From: a virus
Taxonomy: Duplodnaviria; Heunggongvirae; Uroviricota; Caudoviricetes
Virus record (IMG/VR): IMGVR_UViG_2537562092_000002
Location: 1-37,884 of that record
DNA: 37,884 nucleotides
Reading direction: 5' to 3' (one strand)
Numbering within the stretch: position 1 is the first letter of the stretch; each line of letters starts with the position of its first letter. The notes under the pieces were generated by a model. The model had not been told where the DNA came from, did not search any database, and was given only the letters and a program-made list of their open reading frames with translations. Made by a program: the position numbers and the translations under genes. This document shows, piece by piece, positions 1-36,516 of this stretch.

Positions 1-396
1 GAAATGGACGAACAGTGGGGCTACGTCGGTGCTAAATCACGTCAGCGCTGGCTGTTTTACGCGTATGACAGGATACGGAGGACGGTTGTGGCGCACGTCT
101 TCGGTGAACGCACTCTGGCCACACTGGAGTGTCTTCTGAGCCTGCTGTCGGCCTTTGAGGTCGTGGTATGGATGACGGATGGCTGGCCGCTGTATGAATC
201 CCGCCTGAAGGGAAAGCTGCACGTTATCAGCAAGCGTTACACTCAGCGCATTGAGCGACATAACCTGAATCTGAGACAACATCTGGCAAGGCTGGGACGG
301 AAGTCACTGTCGTTCTCAAAATCGGTGGAGCTGCATGACAAGGTCATCGGGCATTATCTGAACATAAAACACTATCAGTAAGTTGGAGTCATTACC
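1..396 (+). mobile_element. IS1 right-hand end (partial; window starts inside the element)
   Basis: Sequence ends in the characteristic IS1 terminus ...cactatcagtaagttggagtcattacc at about 370..396; contains the insB 3' portion. Confidence 0.85.
4..381 (+). CDS. insB: IS1 transposase InsB, C-terminal part (5' end lies outside window)
   Basis: Translation [22 protein letters not shown]...[12 protein letters not shown] matches the well-known IS1 InsB C-terminus. Confidence 0.9.
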
Positions 397-1059
397 CAAA
401 AACACACCTCAATATAATTGAATTTAAGAAAGCACCATTCAATCACTTACAGGAAGTAATCTGATCTTCACAAAAGTCAGCTATCGAATAGCCACAGGCA
501 ACACCGCTATTGATACCCCACACACCATAAGAAGATTATTCCATACAGAAAAAATTATATTTACCCATACTTATAAACTGTAACGGAGCTATGACGTACG
601 AACTAAAGACACTACACTCTAATAGAGTTCTGGTACCTAACCAGTGTTAAATACGAACCAGACATACATTCTATGGATTAATTTTCTCAATATTACGCTA
701 TGAGTGTAGTAACATAATTTACACCACCACACTGTAGTTAGTATATGGGGAGACATTACGATAAAAAGAGATAAGTTATACCACAGATACCACCACACAA
801 TACCATAACTCCCATTAATAATACTAATTAACCTAAATTATTTATTGAACACGAAAACAATGAAGGCCCCACCTCACCTCAGACTAAAGCCGACAATATC
901 CTGAGCAACAGGATATCCAATAGTAAATAGTGGTTACACCAGTTATATTTACTGACTGACCTGTACCAGAGTTTTCTAATACAACGCTGACATGGTAAAG
1001 GCATTAGTCTCCTCCGCAAGTAGCAGAGGAGACTATATGTTAGTCAACGATTAAGTTGT

Positions 1060-2511
1060 TCAGAGGTCAAAGTTAGGTGCGACACACAACGTTTTTCCCT
1101 CAATAACCGGTACAACTCTGTTTTGTTCATACAGTAAATCCAGTAACCAGTTGATTTTATCCTTTTTCCGGAAACGGTTCGGACCACGCTGTAAAATGTC
1201 ATTTTTTTTCATACAGAGGATCCCCTTCTCAATGCAATAGCTTTTTATCCAGTTGAAAAGTTCAAGCTCCTCTGGAATGAGTCGCACAGGTACGGTCAGG
1301 GCAGGGTTGTCAAAAGTTAACGGATTAGACAACCGCACATACTCATTACCGTACCATATTGCTAATTCTCTCGCCATTTCTGCAATGTAAGGGGAAATCT
1401 CCCCCTCTTCACCGCTCGAATGGTAGATAAGTCCTGCAAGTCTTGCCATATACTCTGCATTTTTAGCAGCATATTCCCGGCAATGTCTTAAAGGCCCAAA
1501 TCCCCCCAGCTTCGATTCCACATCGTTGTAATAATCCGTCCAGATTCTGGCAGCCTGAGGAGAAAAGTGAAGGCAACGTCGTTCACCACTCATCGCCAGA
1601 CTTTCATCAATAAGCTCATTGATCCTCTGTTCAAACAAATCCTGATACTGTGATGAATAATTATCTCCGGTTATTATCCTTGTCCCCTGCGTTGATGTTG
1701 GTTGACACATCAAAAACCTTGCATGATGTCCTGACGTTTTCACAAGTTCTTTTTTTCGCGTACAAAAACCTTTGTGGTAAACATCAGGCTGAATCATCGC
1801 CGACATCGTCAGTCTTGGCTCCTTCAAATTAATTCCGGGAGATGATTTCCTGTCGATGAAAAGAGAACCTCCATCCCACAAAGTGTTAATAATTCCCAGT
1901 TTACTCATGGCCCGGCTGTCAAAAATTACCCCCCCTTCACTGGATACAAGAGCAAAAGAACGATTGCTATCGGAGTAATATTTTAACATTCCCTCTATCG
2001 TTGTCTCATTAAAAATTGTTCGACGTATCTGCGGCGGAACAGGAGACTTATTCAGATGCGTTTCAAGCTCTGATTCTGTTGCCTTGTAATCTTTACCGGC
2101 ACGAATCTCTTTATGAAATTTTGATTCCAGCGCTTTTTGTTTTTGCTCCCATATTTCCTTTTCTGTGCTGTAATTCTCAACCAGTTTCGCGTATTCTTCC
2201 GCCAGGGCTTCATCCCTGAGATAAAATGCTTTCATAAACACTTTATCCACGGTCGTTTTCCTTTCACCAGAATCAGCCAGAATCAGAGAGTAAAGATTAA
2301 CAGGCCCACGTAAATTTCCAGGTCTGCACACGTCAATCTGATTCTGACAGGCAATTGAGATCGCTGTTAATGCGGATGTCGCCACCATAGCCAAAGGTGC
2401 CTGTGTATTTTTTTGAGTTTCAATTATTGCATTTCTCACCAGCGGTGGTAGTGCATATATCGGATAAGGATTTTCTGGTGCAAGTAAGCACATAAAAGCC
2501 TCTCTTTTCAT
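1060..2511 (-). CDS. DUF3987/YfjI-like protein of P4/CP4-type islands (putative primase-helicase-associated)
   Basis: 483-aa ORF immediately downstream of an AlpA-family gene, the typical AlpA-DUF3987 module of integrative islands. Family assignment is from memory, not a search. Confidence 0.45.
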   Translation of the reverse strand: MKREAFMCLLAPENPYPIYALPPLVRNAIIETQKNTQAPLAMVATSALTAISIACQNQIDVCRPGNLRGPVNLYSLILADSGERKTTVDKVFMKAFYLRDEALAEEYAKLVENYSTEKEIWEQKQKALESKFHKEIRAGKDYKATESELETHLNKSPVPPQIRRTIFNETTIEGMLKYYSDSNRSFALVSSEGGVIFDSRAMSKLGIINTLWDGGSLFIDRKSSPGINLKEPRLTMSAMIQPDVYHKGFCTRKKELVKTSGHHARFLMCQPTSTQGTRIITGDNYSSQYQDLFEQRINELIDESLAMSGERRCLHFSPQAARIWTDYYNDVESKLGGFGPLRHCREYAAKNAEYMARLAGLIYHSSGEEGEISPYIAEMARELAIWYGNEYVRLSNPLTFDNPALTVPVRLIPEELELFNWIKSYCIEKGILCMKKNDILQRGPNRFRKKDKINWLLDLLYEQNRVVPVIEGKTLCVAPNFDL

Positions 2512-2741
2512 TAATGGGTTAGTAAAGTAGCAGCAACTCCCGCTATAATAGCGAAATAGCTGCTGTTCAGACCTAATGTTCTGAGAAATACAGAATATCT
2601 GTAGATCTGATGTTTAATAAACCGATAAGGTTAATTCAGTTCATACTGTGTTATTTACCACGAAATATCATTCATGTTTCTCATTCTTAACACCTCCTAA
2701 AATTATTTCACTAACACCTTCCCCCCGATCTTTTTCCTTTC

Positions 2742-2969
2742 TCAGGAATCAGCCAGAACCATAGTGTAAATATTAACGGGCCCACGTAAATTTCCGGGGT
2801 TGCACACGTCAATCTGATTCTGACAGGCAATTGACATCGCTGTTAATAATGATGTTGTAGTCATAGCCAGAAATGCTTTTTCATTGTGTTGAGTTTCAAT
2901 TATTGCATTTCCAGTCATTGATGGTTGCGCATATACTGGATACGGAGTATCCGGTTTGATGTAAGACAT
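2742..2969 (-). pseudogene. Truncated paralog of the DUF3987-like gene (N-terminal ~75 codons only)
   Basis: Translation ...NAIIETQHNEKAFLAMTTTSLLTAMSIACQNQIDVCNPGNLRGPVNIYTMVLADS parallels residues ~20-85 of the 1060..2511 product; the frame stops after ADS while DNA similarity continues a few codons further. Confidence 0.6.
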
Positions 2970-3074
2970 AAATATTTCCTTTTTTCGTAATAACTTTCGG
3001 TTATAGCAGCTATTTCCGCTACAATAGCAACAATAGCTGCTATACAGACTGGATATACTGAAAATACAGACAGT

Positions 3075-3323
3075 TCATCTGGTCTGTATCCAGCAGAGAA
3101 GGTCACTTAACAACCATCCGCAAGATTTCTTTCCGATAGACTTACGTGGTGGAAATGTTCCCTCCCGTTCAAGTTTCCACGCTTGTGTACGAGAAATTGA
3201 CGTGATCTCATATCGTTCCTTTTCACGTACCAGTCTGTCGCATTCAATCCCATAAGCTTTCAAAATGACCAGACGCTGTTCATCTGTTAATGGAAGCCAC
3301 ATACTACCCTCCTGATATATCAA
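3075..3323 (-). CDS. alpA: AlpA-family phage/island transcriptional regulator (HTH)
   Basis: C-terminal ...ITSISRTQAWKLEREGTFPPRKSIGKKSCGWLLSDLLCWI resembles the AlpA/Vis DNA-binding fold; it precedes the DUF3987 fragment. Confidence 0.6.
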   Translation of the reverse strand: MIYQEGSMWLPLTDEQRLVILKAYGIECDRLVREKERYEITSISRTQAWKLEREGTFPPRKSIGKKSCGWLLSDLLCWIQTR

Positions 3324-3992
3324 TACTTTTTATTTCCGGCATGAGCATGAAATGACTAAGTTTCCCGGATAAACAATGAGTGAAAGTCACTATCATTCAT
3401 CCAGTCAACACCTTACAAATAAAATGTAATACTATGATTTTTATAGGTCAAAATACTGAATTGAAATGTTAAAATGGCTTTTAATAGAAAAAATAAAGAC
3501 ATATAGAACCAAATAAAAACAAGCCGCGACCAATAAAAACAAAAATTAATATTAAAAATCCATTATGACGATTTTTGTTGACTAAAATTAGGTTGGGATA
3601 TATAAATAAATCCATGTAAAATTCAAACAAAGCATGGAGGAGTCGCAGGAAGGTGAAATATTTCCATCTAATTTGTGATAATCATCACAAAAATAAGCTA
3701 CAACAAGCGGAGGAAAAGACAATCTGTTGCTGAACAGACAGAAGCAGGCTACGAATGATCGGAAAATGAAGCAAATACGCTTATACAGAAGACGCAGAGG
3801 TAACTGACGGAGACAATCACAATCAGGAGAAAATTATCGTAAATAATGTATAAAATCTCAGGATATAAACAAATGTACACAAGCTATCCACGTAATCAGC
3901 GGCTGGCTCAGGATTAACGTTTCATTTCAGTGGACAACATCGATTCTGTCTGACAGCGGACCAATATGTAGCAAGCAGAAACTTCTGACATC

Positions 3993-5612
3993 ATGGTAAC
4001 TCGGACAATGCAACAAAAGTATCAGTATGATCGTGTTTTATCCGGCGAACTCCACCCATTCCCTGGCATATACGAGGCGGTTTCCGAACAAATCCTTTTG
4101 CTCATTTTTAAAGCACGTCAACTATATCAGGATCCAGAATATCGCCCCTGGTTTGAAGAACAGCACAGAGTACTCTCTGCATTACGTGCCAATACAGAGC
4201 TCCTGAGAATCTTTAGAGAACAAAGAAGCGCTGAAGAACCAAAGCTTACTATTGAAGAGTCTACCTCTCCCCAACCCACTCCTTCTGCTCTTACAGATGC
4301 GCTTAATGTGATGTGCCATTTATACAATGGTTTTGATGAAGGAAATATCAGTCTGAAAACCTGGGGGGCGATGCAAGAGGTACAGACAACATCAACCTTT
4401 ATCAGCCCAGGACCGAGAACCTGGAAAACACCTGAACTGGCAAAGTTTGTAGGAGATGATTTATTTAATATTCTGACTGAATGTAAAGCTTGGAGTTCAC
4501 CAATTCCAGCAGAAGCCCGGCAGGGGTATTGCCATCAGGATCTGTCTGTTGCGCACTCCTGCACCTCAGAGTTGCTGGCACACCTGAAGCAGTATCATGA
4601 AATAGATGAATCAACAATACTTGCCATAACCATTGGTCTGGCGGTTAACGAATTCTACCAGAATAAGCAAAATATTCCAGAATGGCTTTCCTGTTTTGAG
4701 AATAAGAACAAATGGCCCTGGGACTGCAGGAAGTCAGATACTGAAGATGTGCACAGACTGAGAGAACGACTATCGATAATCGGATGTACAGAATTCGTAA
4801 AAAATATGTTTTCAGTCGCCAGTCAGCGTGAAATACAGACAATGTACAATATTTATGTCCATATTTATGCAGCTGAAATCTGTGGTTGGGTAAAAACAAG
4901 CATGGCGTATTTTAAACCAACAGATTTCATCCAGTACACATGGAAATTCGCAACAGTTACTCCGGATAAAGATGAAAAAACCGAGAATACGACCGCATGG
5001 GAAAGGGATTATTGTCAGATAACCATACAACGAGATGAACTCCTTAGATTGATTCGCACTAATACTCTGCAGGATGCCGCAATTCATCTTTCAGGCTGCC
5101 TGCAATATGCATATCTGGAGTCAGTAAAGCATGATATTGACTATCCAGGAATAGCCCCTAATGCTGAAGAAAAGAAAATGAAACACACAGATTCTATTGA
5201 ATTTTCTGGAATTCGGAATAACATCATAAATGCAGTAAAACGGCTGGAATCATTTGAAAAATGGTATGAAACTAATAAAGTTTTGTTGGTAAGTAATAAA
5301 AAAATACGAACAGAGAAGATTGACGTTGTTGTACGACTTGCGGGACTGAAAGCCTATGATTTGCAGGAAGGGGTTCCGGATGGTCTGAAATGGAAAGTTA
5401 AAGATGGCATAAATGAACGCATCAAAACCGATACCAGTTTATGCCTGCCTCAGGATATCAGTGATACATCGCTAAACCGTTATCGTCACGCTGTGACGCG
5501 CATTGTCAACAACGAAATCGACACATTACTGATGGAACAGAAGAAAAAAATAAAAGATTCCCCTACAGCAAAGATCGACATGCGATCCAACCTTTATGGA
5601 GCAAATGTTTGA
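3993..5612 (+). CDS. Hypothetical protein, 539 aa, AT-rich cargo gene
   Basis: Long uninterrupted ORF preceded by a ~670-bp AT-rich intergenic region; no motif recognised by eye. Confidence 0.5.
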   Translation: MVTRTMQQKYQYDRVLSGELHPFPGIYEAVSEQILLLIFKARQLYQDPEYRPWFEEQHRVLSALRANTELLRIFREQRSAEEPKLTIEESTSPQPTPSALTDALNVMCHLYNGFDEGNISLKTWGAMQEVQTTSTFISPGPRTWKTPELAKFVGDDLFNILTECKAWSSPIPAEARQGYCHQDLSVAHSCTSELLAHLKQYHEIDESTILAITIGLAVNEFYQNKQNIPEWLSCFENKNKWPWDCRKSDTEDVHRLRERLSIIGCTEFVKNMFSVASQREIQTMYNIYVHIYAAEICGWVKTSMAYFKPTDFIQYTWKFATVTPDKDEKTENTTAWERDYCQITIQRDELLRLIRTNTLQDAAIHLSGCLQYAYLESVKHDIDYPGIAPNAEEKKMKHTDSIEFSGIRNNIINAVKRLESFEKWYETNKVLLVSNKKIRTEKIDVVVRLAGLKAYDLQEGVPDGLKWKVKDGINERIKTDTSLCLPQDISDTSLNRYRHAVTRIVNNEIDTLLMEQKKKIKDSPTAKIDMRSNLYGANV

Positions 5613-5715
5613 TCGAGCAGTAGAGTACTGAGGGGATAACCGTTCTGTTATCCCCTGTTTATTCTGCCAACTCTCAGGTCTGTCAGAGTTCCAAGAACAC
5701 GATGCGGCTGGCAAA

Positions 5716-6312
5716 TTATGCGGCTTTTCCATTAACAGATTCGGCCACAAGAACAACACCGTGTTTATTTCGATCAGGATGTTCACTCCAGATTTCTGAT
5801 TCAGGAATACTTTCCCCGTCATAGCAGATCCGATCGCCATCAAACGGATAATACCGTGCGGAATCAGTATCTAAAATAAACACTTTCAGATTCGTTGAAC
5901 GACGCGCTATATGCTGCCAGAGAGCTTTACCTCCTTCATATTGCTCGTTATCACTTAATAGTATAACGCCCGCTTTTGTGGCTATCGTTTCATATACAAA
6001 CGTCGCAAGGCCAACATCACGTACAGCACCATCAACAACAATCCCTTCAATCTGGGCAACGTCCTGCTCTTCCCAGAATTTCCGGACAAACACCCCTTCA
6101 AGCTGTGAGCGACGCTGAAGCTCCAGAGTGGCAACAACTTTATGGCGAATATCACCATCAATAACAGAAGGTGCAGCTTCGATTACCGCAGCGAACGGAG
6201 TCTTTGGATCCCAGATGATCTGGTAAAGCACGCCCTGAATAGTTACTCCATCCAGTATCGAAAAACGACGAGCTACAGTAGCAGGGGAGTAAGGCATTGG
6301 AATGACAGCCAT
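5716..6312 (-). CDS. Hypothetical protein, 198 aa
   Basis: ORF convergent with the 539-aa gene, located between the island remnant and attL; no recognised motif. Confidence 0.4.
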   Translation of the reverse strand: MAVIPMPYSPATVARRFSILDGVTIQGVLYQIIWDPKTPFAAVIEAAPSVIDGDIRHKVVATLELQRRSQLEGVFVRKFWEEQDVAQIEGIVVDGAVRDVGLATFVYETIATKAGVILLSDNEQYEGGKALWQHIARRSTNLKVFILDTDSARYYPFDGDRICYDGESIPESEIWSEHPDRNKHGVVLVAESVNGKAA

Positions 6313-6605
6313 TTTATGGCCTAAAATTTGAAAACATCAGTATCAATACTGACCTCATCAGTCTGAGCATATATTGATAAAGTTTTTATGTTTACACTCA
6401 ATAAATACCTTACCAAACAACTAATAGCGATGTCTACATTGCCATTCGACATGCTTACAATTTTTGTCAACAAGAAAGTGAATTTATATCAACGGTAAGA
6501 AGTAAACACGAGGACACCAAAACCAAATGTACACACTTTTGTGCTTTGTGTCCCCTGTGTGTACCCAAATGACAAACTGCAAGAAAATCTAGGCACACAC
6601 TTATC

Positions 6606-6668
6606 TAACTTATTGATTTAAATGGTGCCGATAATAGGAGTCGAACCTACGACCTTCGCATTACGAAT
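6606..6668. repeat. Prophage attL: 63-bp direct repeat containing the 3' 46 nt of thrW
   Basis: taacttattgatttaaatggtgccgataataggagtcgaacctacgaccttcgcattacgaat is identical at 36424..36486. Confidence 0.85.
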
Positions 6669-7315
6669 TATAAGAATCCGCTTCTAATTCAAAGCATTAC
6701 CCTATCAACACTGCGCTCACAAGTCCCACCACATCAAAACATGTAAAGCCTTGCAAGCCATTGCTAGGCCTTATGTGTCTCAGTTTTGTCCCACTACGAC
6801 CCGCATAACCAATAAGAAGATTGCAGTGATGTCAAACGACACAGCAGCCTTCTTTTCCTTCATACTTTCCCCACCCAGCATGCATATCTTCTACCATAAC
6901 TGTAGTGAATGTCTGTTATGAGCGAAGAGCGGACTTGAGACTATTGTAAATGAAAACCATATAATTTTAACCGGCAGAAACACATGAGTAATTTTAAGGC
7001 TAATTAGTTATCTGGGAGATGAGGGGCAAAGCACGATATCGTACACCAATGGAATAACCTTATGATTAATATAAATATAAAAGGCAGAAAGTCTTCCTCA
7101 AAATGGCTTGAATCGGGTGCATCTGTCTGCGAAACGATTTTTTAGACGTTTTTATCGCTTTCAGTTCAGTTTTCCCCTCGAATCCAAGTGACAAAGCCGA
7201 TTTAGTTTTCACACATCCGTACAATGTGCATCCCTCGATGAGCCTTTTCAGGCAAAGTTACGGGGATGCTTGATTCATTTAAACTGAGTTAGTACAACTT
7301 AATTAATAATATCAT

Positions 7316-8362
7316 TTATGCTAGAGTTGAATATTCTCCATTTCCTCGGTCGGTGAGTGTTAATTCGCGGCCATTTTCTGTAAATGTAATGGCATCCAGC
7401 AGGCTTTTTCCTGTTACAGCTATACCATATCCAAGGTTATCAATCTTTGAACTGTCCTCAGATGATATTGGTATTTGTACAAGCATACCAACAACAAGGC
7501 CGTATTTGTTAATTATAGGGCCACCGCTATTCCCCCCCTTAACCCTAGCATTGAATAATAAAAAGTCTTGTGAATCTAAGTAAGAGTGACCAGAACCAAC
7601 AATTCGCCCCTTTGACAGTCGGACAAACGAATTTATATGCGAAACGTCATATAACTTTAATGCATCAAATCCTGGAATGGGTGGAAATCCTATTGATAAA
7701 ATTTCATCCAGTACCGAGGCTTTGGTTGAGACCTTAAGTGGTTGAATATTATCTTCATTCGGAATGGTTGTGAAAACTAAAGCGATATCAATACGTTCAT
7801 CGTTAGATACAAAGATTTTATGTATTGGTAAAGCCTCACCACCAGCTCTAAGTATCCTGATACTCTTCATGTCTTCAATAACATGTCTGGCTGTAAATAT
7901 CGTGTGGTTATTCCCAACAATAAAACTAGTACCAAGATCATGTGAACCATCACTTTTTTCAACAACAACAGGTAAAACGGAAGGACTAAGGCGGTCTATG
8001 ATTGACTCAAATCCATCAGCTATAAAATCATACTTTCCATATTTCGCATCTGATTCATTGAAATTCGGTGCGAAATAGCAACGGTCAAAAAGAGTATGTC
8101 CTGAAGACAATTCCATTAAAATACCTTCAGTTGCTAGCTTTTCACAATTGCGTATTAACTTCATCATATCGAGAGTATTTTCCCACTCAGGTTTGAGACG
8201 GGTCAGGCTCTCAATTGTTTTTCTCTCTTTTACGTTATCGTTTTCCGGTTTGTCATAAAAATATTTCACTATTTCTGTTGGTGTTACATATGTTTTTTTT
8301 ATAGTCATTTTTGTACCCGCGATGACGTTATTCCATATATTTTTCTTTGTAGAAAATATCAC
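7316..8362 (-). CDS. Cytoplasmic trypsin-like (S1/chymotrypsin-fold) serine protease domain protein with ~130-aa N-terminal domain of unknown function
   Basis: His/Asp/Ser triad motifs in canonical order: TARHVIED, DIALVF, GGNSGGPI (GDSGGP-like). No signal peptide. Lies in AT-rich cargo between attL and the invertase. Confidence 0.55.
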   Translation of the reverse strand: MIFSTKKNIWNNVIAGTKMTIKKTYVTPTEIVKYFYDKPENDNVKERKTIESLTRLKPEWENTLDMMKLIRNCEKLATEGILMELSSGHTLFDRCYFAPNFNESDAKYGKYDFIADGFESIIDRLSPSVLPVVVEKSDGSHDLGTSFIVGNNHTIFTARHVIEDMKSIRILRAGGEALPIHKIFVSNDERIDIALVFTTIPNEDNIQPLKVSTKASVLDEILSIGFPPIPGFDALKLYDVSHINSFVRLSKGRIVGSGHSYLDSQDFLLFNARVKGGNSGGPIINKYGLVVGMLVQIPISSEDSSKIDNLGYGIAVTGKSLLDAITFTENGRELTLTDRGNGEYSTLA

Positions 8363-8771
8363 TATTGCTGGTAAATGTTAAGTTCAGTGCTCGCACTAAA
8401 GCTGGATGATCAACGTCGCCCTCGTATGGAAATCAGGTAAGATTCATGTCTACTTGGGGTCTAGGGTAGACAGCATAAAAACGTACGATAGCGTTCGATT
8501 GGCTCTCACCCCCGCCTATAAACCATGAGGTTGATAGGGTAGTATCGTTAGGCAATAGTATACATGTAAGTATCCAACCTAATTGGTCTTGAGATTTCTA
8601 ACTAACGTGTCGTTATGTCCGCTTTTGGCACATAGCAGCCCCAGAGACAGTGGTGTAAAGTCATGGAGGGTCGGTGGGAGGATATTCAGTTTCATTCATG
8701 CCGAAATACGGTAAAATCTATAATAGATGGAAATCATTCAATACTCGCACTATCGAAAGTCCACCAGCCAG

Positions 8772-8808
8772 CCACAGCACGTTCTTGCATACAACGTGCC
8801 TGCGGTTT
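8772..8808. repeat. Hairpin-forming repeat, copy 1 (upstream of the GIY-YIG gene)
   Basis: ccacagcacgttcttgcatacaacgtgcctgcggttt; about 33/37 identical to 9793..9829; inner stem gcacgtt/aacgtgc. Confidence 0.6.
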
Positions 8809-8900
8809 TTGAGACCGGTCCGATCATCAAACGAAACATAAAATTAGCTCACACTATGAGGAAAAGTATCTTTTTTTACTATGTAAATTCAAAGGATTAG

Positions 8901-9770
<870 letters not shown>

Positions 9771-9792: not shown

Positions 9793-9829
9793 CCGCAGCA
9801 CGATCTTGCATACGACGAGCCTGCGGTTT
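9793..9829. repeat. Hairpin-forming repeat, copy 2 (between the convergent GIY-YIG and invertase genes; possible bidirectional terminator)
   Basis: ccgcagcacgatcttgcatacgacgagcctgcggttt; outer stem aaccgcag/ctgcggtt; direct repeat of 8772..8808. Confidence 0.55.
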
Positions 9830-10419
9830 CATTTATCTCCGACCGGAAACATCTTATACAGTGTCGATACACCAACATCATAGATGATCGCTACCTTCTG
9901 GCGAGGAATTCCTGCTGCAATTAATCGTCCGGCCTGCTCCCATTGTTCTGGTGTAAGTTTGGGGCGACGTCCACCAATTCGTCCCTGTGCGCGAGCAGCT
10001 TCCAGTCCAGCTTTTGTTCGTTCAACAATCAGTTCACGCTCCATTTCAGCCAGGGCACCCATCACATGAAAGAAAAAGCGCCCCATTGGGGTACTGGTAT
10101 CAATTGAATCCGTCAGACTACGAAAGTTGATGCCTCGTTCGCGCAACTCCTCCACCAGCACGACAAGATGCCGCATACTGCGCTCCAGCCGGTCCAGTTT
10201 CCAGGCCACCAGCGTGTCACCTGCCGATAATGTCCTGAGCAGTTTTTTCAGTCCCGGCCTTTCGGACTTTGTACCGCTTATCTTGTCTTCAAAAATCAGC
10301 TCGCATCCTGCACAGTTCAGCGCATTACGTTGTAGATCTGTGTTCTGGTCATTTGTTGATACACGTACATAGCCAATAAGCATGTTAAATCCCCCTGGTA
10401 AAAGCAGGAATGATGCCAT
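9829..10419 (-). CDS. Serine-recombinase DNA invertase (Pin/Gin/Hin/Cin family); likely true start at MLIGYVRVST (~10383)
   Basis: MLIGYVRVSTNDQNTDLQ...GRRPKLTPEQWEQAGRLIAAG is the classic resolvase/invertase catalytic domain plus C-terminal HTH; adjacent to an invertible tail-fibre segment. Confidence 0.85.
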   Translation of the reverse strand: MASFLLLPGGFNMLIGYVRVSTNDQNTDLQRNALNCAGCELIFEDKISGTKSERPGLKKLLRTLSAGDTLVAWKLDRLERSMRHLVVLVEELRERGINFRSLTDSIDTSTPMGRFFFHVMGALAEMERELIVERTKAGLEAARAQGRIGGRRPKLTPEQWEQAGRLIAAGIPRQKVAIIYDVGVSTLYKMFPVGDK

Positions 10420-27489: not shown

Positions 27490-27565
27490 TGGTGCTGGTT
27501 AACGGACTTGAACCGCTACCCATTCGCTTACAAGGCGACCGCTCTACCATTGGAGCTAAACCAGC
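27490..27565 (-). tRNA. Phage-encoded tRNA, anticodon UGU (Thr) by manual folding
   Basis: Reverse complement GCTGGTTTAGCTCCAATGGTAGAGCGGTCGCCTTGTAAGCGAATGGGTAGCGGTTCAAGTCCGTTAACCAGCACCA folds as a cloverleaf (7-bp acceptor, GGTTCAAGTCC T-arm, loop CUUGUAA). Confidence 0.6.
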
Positions 27566-27570
27566 ATATT

Positions 27571-27645
27571 TGGCGGGACAGCGTGGACTCGAACCACGAT
27601 AAGAAGGTTAACAGCCTTCCGTAATGACCTTTATACGACTGACCC
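27571..27645 (-). tRNA. Phage-encoded tRNA, anticodon GUU (Asn) by manual folding; slightly degenerate D-arm
   Basis: Reverse complement GGGTCAGTCGTATAAAGGTCATTACGGAAGGCTGTTAACCTTCTTATCGTGGTTCGAGTCCACGCTGTCCCGCCA: perfect anticodon and T stems, loop CUGUUAA, one acceptor mismatch. Confidence 0.5.
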
Positions 27646-35386: not shown

Positions 35387-36426
35387 AGGCTGAAGCATGG
35401 CGGGTCAGCAAACTTGGTGAAATACCTGATATGACGTTTGAGGAAGCGTGTGTCAGGTGGCTCGAAGAGAAAGCACATAAGAAATCACTGGACGATGACA
35501 AAAGCCGGATCGGATTCTGGCTTCAACATTTCGCAGGGATGCAACTAAGAGACATCACTGAATCAAAAATTTATTCAGCGATGCAGAAAATGACAAACCG
35601 GCGTCATGAGGAAAACTGGAAACTCAGGGCAGAAGCATGCAGAAAAAAAGGGAAACCTGTTCCAGAATACACGCCAAAACCAGCGTCCGTTGCAACGAAG
35701 GCTACGCATCTTTCATTTATAAAGGCCCTGCTAAGAGCCGCAGAGCGTGAATGGAAAATGCTGGATAAGGCACCAATTATTAAAGTGCCTCAACCAAAGA
35801 ATAAACGGATCCGCTGGCTGGAGCCCCATGAAGCACAAAGGCTGATTGATGAATGTCCGGAGCCATTAAAGTCTGTTGTTGAATTTGCACTGGCAACAGG
35901 CTTAAGACGCTCGAACATCATCAACCTTGAATGGCAACAAATAGATATGCAGCGCCGGGTGGCATGGATAAACCCGGAAGAGAGTAAATCAAACCGCGCA
36001 ATCGGCGTTGCGCTGAATGATACTGCATGTCGCGTATTGAAAAAACAAATCGGGAATCATCACCGTTGGGTATTTGTGTACAAGGAAAGCTGTACCAAAC
36101 CAGACGGAACGAAAGCGCCAACAGTAAGGAAGATGCGGTATGACGCAAACACAGCCTGGAAAGCGGCGCTGAGACGGGCTGGTATTGATGATTTCAGATT
36201 TCACGACTTGAGACACACCTGGGCAAGTTGGCTGGTTCAAGCCGGAGTCCCGTTGTCAGTGTTACAGGAAATGGGAGGCTGGGAGTCTATCGAAATGGTT
36301 CGTCGATATGCTCACCTTGCACCTAATCACCTTACCGAACACGCACGGCAAATAGACTCGATCCTGAACCCATCGGTCCCAAATTTGTCCCAGTCAAAAA
36401 ATAAGGAAGGTACTAATGATGTGTAA
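35263..36426 (+). CDS. int: Tyrosine integrase (P22 Int-like), thrW-specific
   Basis: [48 protein letters not shown]... with C-terminal R...HxxR...Y catalytic region ([15 protein letters not shown]); its stop codon abuts the att repeat next to thrW. Confidence 0.9.
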
Positions 36427-36486
36427 CTTATTGATTTAAATGGTGCCGATAATAGGAGTCGAACCTACGACCTTCGCATTACGAAT
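36424..36486. repeat. Prophage attR: 63-bp direct repeat overlapping the 3' part of intact thrW
   Basis: Identical to 6606..6668. Confidence 0.85.
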
Positions 36487-36516
36487 GCGCTGCTCTACCA
36501 ACTGAGCTATATCGGC
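36441..36516 (-). tRNA. thrW: tRNA-Thr (anticodon CGU), thrW
   Basis: Reverse complement GCCGATATAGCTCAGTTGGTAGAGCAGCGCATTCGTAATGCGAAGGTCGTAGGTTCGACTCCTATTATCGGCACCA is a canonical 76-nt cloverleaf with CGT anticodon, adjacent to proA as in E. coli. Confidence 0.9.

Follow-up and report, generated by a model that had tools for sequence, protein, structure and literature searches.

A winged-helix trypsin-like protease gene in the variable slot of a thrW prophage, a candidate one-protein anti-phage defence

Intracellular trypsins and the prophage protease

The trypsin-like proteases of bacterial immune systems are now understood as middlemen: fused to a large sensor (a STAND ATPase, Hachiman or a reverse transcriptase, RT), which activates them, they license an adjacent effector by cleaving its zymogen form (10.1101/2025.11.14.688446; PMC12799240). 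The systems of this kind with which the present locus is best compared are Avs2, Hachiman, Lamassu (LmuA), the retron XI RT-protease and the protease-MBL, protease-Pepco and protease-EACC1 pairs, and a literature search for a single-gene trypsin-like defence returned only multi-component systems. The gene considered here lies at positions 7316..8308, on the minus strand, of a viral DNA stretch of 37,884 nucleotides (Caudoviricetes; IMG/VR record IMGVR_UViG_2537562092_000002; hereafter the window, at its full length), within a prophage associated with thrW, and encodes a protein of 330 amino acids consisting of a winged-helix-like N-terminal domain and an S1 (HtrA-like) protease domain. Like the systems listed above, the protein has a Trypsin_2 domain, is predicted to be cytoplasmic and occurs in an anti-phage context; unlike them, it has neither a large sensor nor an adjacent effector gene, its sole extra part being a family-specific winged helix of 115 residues, and therefore the protease itself must be the effector, if the protein is defensive at all. 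The reading towards which we lean, though only slightly, is that the gene is a moron of the thrW prophage, expressed from its own promoter in the lysogen, and that it most likely provides a one-protein anti-phage defence acting by abortive infection or exclusion. We infer the anti-phage or toxic activity of the protease from its context only; that same context supports an earlier sequence-only reading of this DNA, which had proposed that the gene might form, by itself, a module of the defence or toxin type.

Outside immunity, the best structural matches are the HtrA proteases DegP, DegQ and DegS (MEROPS S1C), which display the same chymotrypsin fold, His-Asp-Ser triad and GNSGGP motif; the activity of DegS is gated by its PDZ domain, and the prophage protein likewise possesses a fused non-catalytic domain that could have a gating function. 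On the other hand, the prophage protein lacks a PDZ domain (no Pfam match at E<=1), an export signal and an anchor, its accessory domain is an N-terminal winged helix and its gene is prophage cargo instead of part of the core genome. Membership of the HtrA/DegP (S1C) group was accordingly ruled out on the basis of the absent PDZ, the absent export signal, as judged by hydropathy, and the scores against the NCBIfam HtrA models, which range from 20 to 46 bits against cut-offs of 400–800 (the best being 45.9 vs 416 bits, TIGR02037). A more distant parallel is offered by FAM111A, a vertebrate intracellular Trypsin_2 protease that restricts viruses and whose activity must be restrained (PMC9798293). 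Both proteins are intracellular, with a PF13365 domain and non-catalytic N-terminal domains, but FAM111A is eukaryotic and its N-terminal PIP box and UBL domains are unrelated to the winged helix, the likeness being an analogy by way of the Pfam domain.

The open reading frame (ORF) from which the sequence-only reading had started (7316..8362, minus strand) does exist, but the start assigned to it does not hold: the GTG at 8362, which would yield a protein of 348 residues, was discarded in favour of the ATG at 8306-8308, the stop codon occupying 7316-7318. Indeed, the identical 993-bp RefSeq gene (WP_000152898.1, “S1 family peptidase”) begins at ATG 8308, the full length of phrog_18002 (positions 1-330) aligns with the long ORF from its residue 19 onwards (E=9e-234), the N-termini of the homologues coincide with this start and the context of the ATG is kept in orthologous cassettes. 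Altogether 78 homologues were collected, mostly of ~330 amino acids, and all residue numbers given below refer to the 330-residue protein. A Pfam match to CTD12 of the ABC-3C systems (E=0.0039) was rejected, being below the cut-off and lying in part within the extra upstream stretch of the 348-residue ORF, which is non-coding.

The protease domain (residues 116-330; 7319..7963, minus strand) matches Pfam Trypsin_2 (PF13365) over the entire profile, positions 1-144 of 144, with E=1.7e-17 and a score of 64.9 bits (cut-off 27.6), and the motifs that had been read from the sequence (TARHVIED, DIALVF and KGGNSGGPI) are all present. The triad is complete and in S1 order: His142 (codon 7883-7885), Asp174 (7787-7789) and Ser261 (7526-7528, within GGNSGGP), whose positions were checked, are invariant in all 41 members of a family alignment in which identities fall as low as 27%. 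The AlphaFold2 model derived from the family alignment (predicted local distance difference test, pLDDT, 84.7; predicted template modelling score, pTM, 0.84) places these residues in a double beta-barrel which, in a Foldseek comparison, resembles the protease domains of DegS, DegQ, DegP and MucD (E ~1e-13, 20-22% identity over ~225 columns), with a Foldseek probability of 1.00 to those of DegS, DegP and DegQ; sequence searches of the PDB agree with these HtrA-type matches. Thus the Trypsin_2 score above threshold, the ordered His-Asp-Ser triad with its GxSGG motif and the double beta-barrel fold identify the protein as a peptidase of family S1, clan PA. The chain ends ~45 residues beyond the last strand of the protease fold. 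The claim that no signal peptide is present also stands, as far as hydropathy can tell: the maximum Kyte-Doolittle(9) value is 0.49 over the first 35 window starts, the maximum Kyte-Doolittle(19) value across the whole protein is 1.26, and by the same measure neither an N-terminal hydrophobic region nor a membrane segment is found across the family. Since neither an N-terminal hydrophobic segment nor a stretch of transmembrane level is seen, the protease is predicted to be cytoplasmic.

The N-terminal domain, which had been described as ~130 residues long and impossible to place, turned out to be real but shorter (~115 residues with the linker) and to model confidently as a winged-helix fold. 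Residues ~1-83 (8060..8308, minus strand) would form three helices (10-17, 32-36 and 48-60) followed by a beta-hairpin (65-68 and 77-80), and are joined to the protease by a conserved helical linker, residues ~84-115 (7964..8059, minus strand), whose helices at 85-110 have pLDDT > 90 and which carries the family motif YGxYDFxxxGF, with Y90, Y93, G99 and F100 near-invariant (alignments A1 and A3). When the window gene is compared with two orthologues at ~80% nucleotide identity the ratio of non-synonymous to synonymous substitution rates (dN/dS) is 0.10-0.15 overall, 0.09-0.23 for the N-domain and 0.09-0.11 for the protease domain, and, the ratio being ~0.1 in each domain, both halves are under purifying selection. 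An exhaustive search of 1.84 billion representatives with a hidden Markov model (HMM) profile of the N-domain returned 167 clusters only, nearly all of 310-370 residues and with the domain at the N-terminus; Trypsin_2 was present in every complete match checked. A word-indexed search for other architectures gave only two fragments, the longer matches (P0116, P0138, P0178 and P0107) contain additional N-terminal sequence and no extra Pfam domain, and the match to P0202 was dismissed as spurious, since it concerns an FG-GAP repeat. Because the HMM search finds only proteins that combine the winged helix with Trypsin_2, the N-domain is, on sequence grounds, specific to this protease family and not a modular sensor common to other effectors.

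A one-gene cassette in a variable slot

The protease gene is preceded, ~45 nt upstream of its ATG, by a sigma-70 promoter-like element (8353..8381, minus strand) recognised by a consensus scan and composed of TTAACA, a 17-nt spacer and TATTTT with a TG extended -10. Three orthologous cassettes share this block without any change, although their overall identity is only ~80% and the bases flanking the block diverge. The nucleotide similarity between the E. coli cassette and two orthologous cassettes found in differing genomic contexts (L022 and L023) begins only ~80 bp before the ATG and gives out 40-90 bp after the stop codon (8391..7229 in the window), so that the mobile unit can be described, from sequence conservation, as ~1.1 kb made up of the coding sequence and its conserved promoter, which is of the extended -10 type. 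Neither a second conserved ORF nor a terminator-like site was found in the cassette, no Rfam RNA matches the region 6500-9100, and a 66-aa ORF located upstream of the Pseudomonas copies of the gene has no counterpart in the window. Furthermore, when the two ORFs closest to the gene in either direction were collected at 31 loci from other phyla, no Pfam family recurred in more than 3 of the 122 proteins, and for this reason the gene is considered to lack a conserved partner. The description of the gene as stand-alone is thus borne out both by its neighbours and by the DNA homology between cassettes, which is restricted to promoter and coding sequence.

A stand-alone, horizontally mobile, low-GC cassette equipped with its own promoter is also what might be expected of a selfish module of the toxin or addiction type, in which a protease that is toxic when deregulated would stabilise the element carrying it and have no specific anti-phage role. 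The toxin-antitoxin components HipA and AbiEii occur among the neighbours of the gene in other genomes, and a precedent exists in the IetS-type serine proteases, which are cited in PMC13069673 as plasmid-stabilising toxins. However, no candidate antitoxin is seen, the cassette having neither a further conserved ORF nor an Rfam RNA and the family no constant neighbour, and addiction is moreover compatible with defence, being in part a sub-case of the reading we favour; as a separate explanation we hold it to be improbable.

The gene belongs to a variable cassette (6943..8617) whose ends were set by the BLAST breakpoints with respect to strain EP91B, in which the same flanks enclose the RT/endonuclease of retron Ec67; more than 30 genomes display a two-piece pattern with 50% coverage consistent with breakpoints at 6943 and 8617. 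The GC content of the cassette is 37.7% vs 48.6% for the prophage body, which agrees with the AT-rich setting noticed from the bare sequence. The occupants of the slot were surveyed in complete E. coli genomes using both flanks as query. In the 60 best records they comprise, apart from the protease, retron Ec67, seen in 5 records, retron Ec48, two proteins annotated “ATP-dependent nuclease” and “AAA family ATPase” that match the PADLOC models AriA/GajA/Old, an HNH endonuclease and a GTP pyrophosphokinase of the RelA/SpoT type. The last of these, a protein of 424 residues, shows a weak match to PDC-S33. In the loci of the slot from other strains (L003, L012-L018) one also finds a 338-aa lipase-family protein, a pair of hypothetical proteins of 488 and 129 residues and a 314-aa hypothetical protein; the uncharacterised occupants, mostly devoid of a PADLOC match, are further defence candidates. 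The stretch separating PD-T4-3 from the thrW att repeat is a variable hotspot of one to two genes.

A distance of 648 bp separates the protease gene from the att repeat (6606..6668); the gene is placed between this repeat and a pinE-type DNA invertase (9829..10383, minus strand), i.e., where the sequence-only reading had put it. That reading had likened this position to that of mcrA in e14, where mcrA lies between pinE and the att site, and the analogy is apt because the adjacent backbone gene encodes a type IV restriction enzyme, CMoRE. This gene, PD-T4-3/CMoRE (8994..9770, plus strand; annotated as “LEM-3-like GIY-YIG domain-containing protein”), was identified by a full-length PADLOC match (E=7e-140), by PDB entry 9U75 (E=7.5e-172) and by Pfam LEM-3_GIY-YIG; it is constant between the variable slot and pinE and lies outside the protease unit. 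CMoRE has been characterised experimentally as an enzyme directed against DNA containing hydroxymethyl- and glucosyl-hydroxymethyl-cytosine (PMC12923530) and is active in its native host (10.1101/2024.12.20.629700); its presence next to the slot marks this out as a locus of defence. In practical terms the hotspot can be defined by the succession thrW att repeat, variable slot, PD-T4-3/CMoRE and pinE. CMoRE, DUF4238, itself a validated defence gene of the P2 hotspot (PMC9122126), the retron Ec67 RT-endonuclease and mcrA of e14 follow the same logic as the protease gene, namely a one-gene, low-GC, self-promoted cassette placed between the invertase/tail-fibre end and att. These cargo genes, however, are nucleases or retrons of demonstrated activity, whereas the product of the window gene is a predicted protease matching no named system.

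The composition of the slot also bears on the alternative that the protease is an accessory of the prophage or element which serves functions other than defence, such as the cleavage of a repressor or anti-repressor in the manner of ImmA/IrrE, the processing of tail fibres or of host range, or anti-defence. A winged helix could dock onto regulators that are DNA-bound or have themselves a winged helix; in A22 and EC02 the gene adjoins a BRO-N/HTH/ImmA-IrrE module, and in two phage types, including that of P0005, it lies beside an invertase and a tail-fibre module. Yet the window is without the BRO-N/HTH/ImmA module, sibling prophages carry retrons or nucleases in the place of the protease, many homologues occur in non-prophage contexts, no close homologue is found in the INPHARED collection (50,697 phage records) and in strain CP66-6 the gene is intact in a prophage decayed to fragments that has lost both structural and regulatory genes. 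Since the slot varies among sibling prophages the protease must be dispensable for the phage life cycle, and this, together with the occurrence of homologues outside prophages, makes a phage-serving role less likely; overall we consider it unlikely, if somewhat less so than addiction. A role in head maturation finds no support either: the sequence homology of the protein is to Trypsin_2/HtrA only, with none to prohead proteases (S49/S78/U9/U35-type), and the gene is located outside the structural module, beyond the invertase, and not in the head module.

Family distribution and the case for defence

The protease family is rare and patchy. Of 5426 complete E. coli genomes 41 contain the gene, in each case as one chromosomal copy with an identity of 99% or more; other members occur in Enterobacteria and Pseudomonas, and a survey of 185,579 species genomes yielded 41 loci, mostly in Bacteroidota, with additional cases in Nostoc/Microcoleus, Nitrospinaceae and Opitutia. 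In CP66-6 (L019, 13197-15401) the gene is bordered by those of DUF4236 and DUF2971 proteins and of a hypothetical protein of 288 residues, with a P4-like remnant containing an RNA-directed DNA polymerase nearby, the whole forming a dense patch of possible defence cargo. P0005, whose protease is 82% identical, belongs to a P2-like prophage that also contains GAPS4; on its contig (L023, 7704-11599) the protease gene lies on the opposite strand between the tail-fibre gene and that of the assembly chaperone, beside a resolvase/invertase, and it looks as if it had been inserted into, or had replaced part of, the invertible tail-fibre segment. As to the BFVD matches, they concern the protease domain only.

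The neighbours of the gene in distant phyla include several linked to defence. Among the 122 proteins mentioned above PADLOC recognises AbiEii (2e-81), a pAgo with TIR partner (2e-187), a retron RT of type VII-A2 with DUF3800 (6.5e-135), an RT of type III-A, a type II methyltransferase with its restriction enzyme and the candidates PDC-S73, PDC-S01 and PDC-S03, to which Pfam adds HipA_C, Mrr_cat and nSTAND3. One homologue adjoins an RT and an SNF2 helicase, and another a TPR-CHAT protein, a kinase and an SMC-like ATPase.

The protease domain itself has PADLOC relatives that are defence fusions, namely RT-Protease_XI (E=6e-13), LmuA (4e-10) and HamA1 (2e-7), while the single-gene candidate PDC-S45, which appears in the literature in an unrelated context only, is matched with E=7.6e-4 over 52 residues. 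Assignment to retron type XI was rejected, since the match covers only profile positions 340-486, with no RVT domain in Pfam and no Rfam hit in the region given above. The protease-effector modules (trypsin paired with MBL, an alpha/beta hydrolase, Pepco or EACC1) were also considered, and neither a conserved effector neighbour nor a large sensor was found.

The HtrA resemblance raises the question of whether the gene might simply encode an ordinary cytoplasmic protease for housekeeping or quality control that happens to be borne by mobile DNA, an idea in keeping with the nature of the best structural and NCBIfam matches, which are quality-control proteases, and with the location of some homologues among housekeeping genes, but at odds with the lack of PDZ, with NCBIfam scores far below the cut-off and with a distribution as sparse as 41 E. 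coli genomes, 41 loci in the species set and 167 clusters in 1.84e9 representatives. The related notion of a secreted or type III effector protease was suggested by the Pseudomonas copies, which have the hrpL-hrpJ type III secretion cluster at a distance of ~2.6 kb, and was rejected because they have no hrp box upstream, the only hrp box of the locus being at hrpJ; besides, the identical Pseudomonas protein is also encoded in a satellite-like element, between HEPN_AbiU2 and DUF4238, and secretion is contradicted by the hydropathy of the N-terminus. In any of these forms we regard this as the least probable of the explanations considered, and a very unlikely one.

Returning to the one-protein defence, this reading is strengthened by the fact that the slot holds retrons and nucleases in other genomes and that the validated PD-T4-3/CMoRE adjoins it. 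In its favour we also count the persistence of an intact gene in the decayed CP66-6 prophage, the defence-linked neighbours in distant phyla (AbiEii, pAgo-TIR, retrons and restriction-modification) and the PADLOC relatives of the protease domain.

Several observations weigh against it. No named or candidate system is matched over its full length in PADLOC, all matches being at the domain level, and the best of them (46.6 bits) is no better than the 45.9 bits of the NCBIfam Do/HtrA (DegP-type) model, so that sequence similarity alone does not place the protein with the defence proteases. Lipase, FlxA-like and hypothetical-protein sets, with no known defence role, also occupy the slot in the 60 best records; the homologues of Nitrospina and Algibacter lie among housekeeping genes, and the enrichment of defence neighbours is qualitative, having no formal background. 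As to the winged helix, most family members have an N-domain of acidic to neutral charge, hence no conserved DNA-binding surface is evident and a DNA-binding role, though conceivable, is not supported by the charge; likewise, its omega of 0.09-0.23 gives no sign of diversifying selection, and phage sensing, like DNA binding, would be a putative role. A constitutive, unregulated protease without an antitoxin would need autoinhibition and, finally, no paper mentioning WP_000152898 was found in the literature.

If the defence reading is correct, the protease would be kept latent as long as the cell is uninfected, and the winged helix with its linker would act as a regulatory or recognition module that might bind a phage protein or a nucleic-acid cue, or might control oligomerisation as the PDZ domains of HtrA do. 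Once triggered, the protease would be the effector and would cleave essential proteins of the host or of the phage, thereby blocking phage production. More tentatively, and with somewhat less confidence than an even chance would warrant, the family may represent a new one-protein immune system in which a family-specific winged helix gates an HtrA-like effector protease, and which dispenses with a zymogen partner as well as with a sensor of the STAND, RT or pAgo kind. Were this true, a protein of 330 residues that senses and executes alone would constitute a minimal form of protease-based immunity, and a logic like that of FAM111A would exist in bacteria, where a promoter-plus-gene cassette of 1.1 kb would have spread horizontally across Proteobacteria, Bacteroidota, Cyanobacteria and Nitrospinota; it would then be asked what the substrate is and how a cytoplasmic HtrA-like protease stays silent having neither PDZ nor antitoxin.

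Prophage setting and neighbouring elements

The att repeat next to the slot (6606..6668) consists of the 46 nt of the thrW 3′ end plus 17 nt and forms a perfect 63-bp direct repeat with 36424-36486; the second copy overlaps the thrW tRNA-Thr(CGU) gene (36441-36516, as located by ARAGORN; 36424..36516 with the repeat, minus strand). The two copies bound a prophage of ~29.8 kb whose integrase adjoins thrW, the thrW end being thus the integrase side. The invertase, which corresponds to pinE in matching genomes and is 82-92% identical to those of P2-type and other phages, terminates the tail-fibre module and represents the inner boundary of the cargo. The same arrangement is seen in strain DX6, with lambdoid regulatory genes, a myovirus-type tail, tail fibres and the pinE-type invertase. 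By comparison with DX6, two tRNA genes of the prophage, tRNA-Thr(UGU) and tRNA-Asn(GUU) (27490-27645, minus strand), have the antiterminator Q gene on one side and the lysis cassette on the other.

In A22 and EC02 an additional ~2.6 kb separates the protease gene from PD-T4-3 and contains BRO-N, HTH and ImmA/IrrE metallopeptidase genes together with two small ORFs. This module is flanked by a 78-bp direct repeat (L001, 13413-13490 and 16083-16160) of which the window has a single copy (8728-8805) and no module, a condition consistent with either repeat-mediated deletion or insertion.

The part of the window to the left of the att repeat (1-6605) belongs to a separate thrW-associated island, resembling CP4-6 and placed in tandem with the prophage, in which a YfjI/DUF3987 protein (1060-2511; Pfam E=2e-83) is accompanied by other CP4-6-like genes. 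At the end of the island, just outside the att repeat, lie two ORFs (3993-5612, plus strand, 539 aa; 5716-6312, minus strand, 198 aa) for which no match was obtained in either Pfam or PADLOC; the pair is kept in other strains and is hypothetical in EC02 and EP91B. In related strains the tandem island varies, containing IS (insertion sequence) elements, inovirus Gp2-like proteins and primase genes of the TOTE system.

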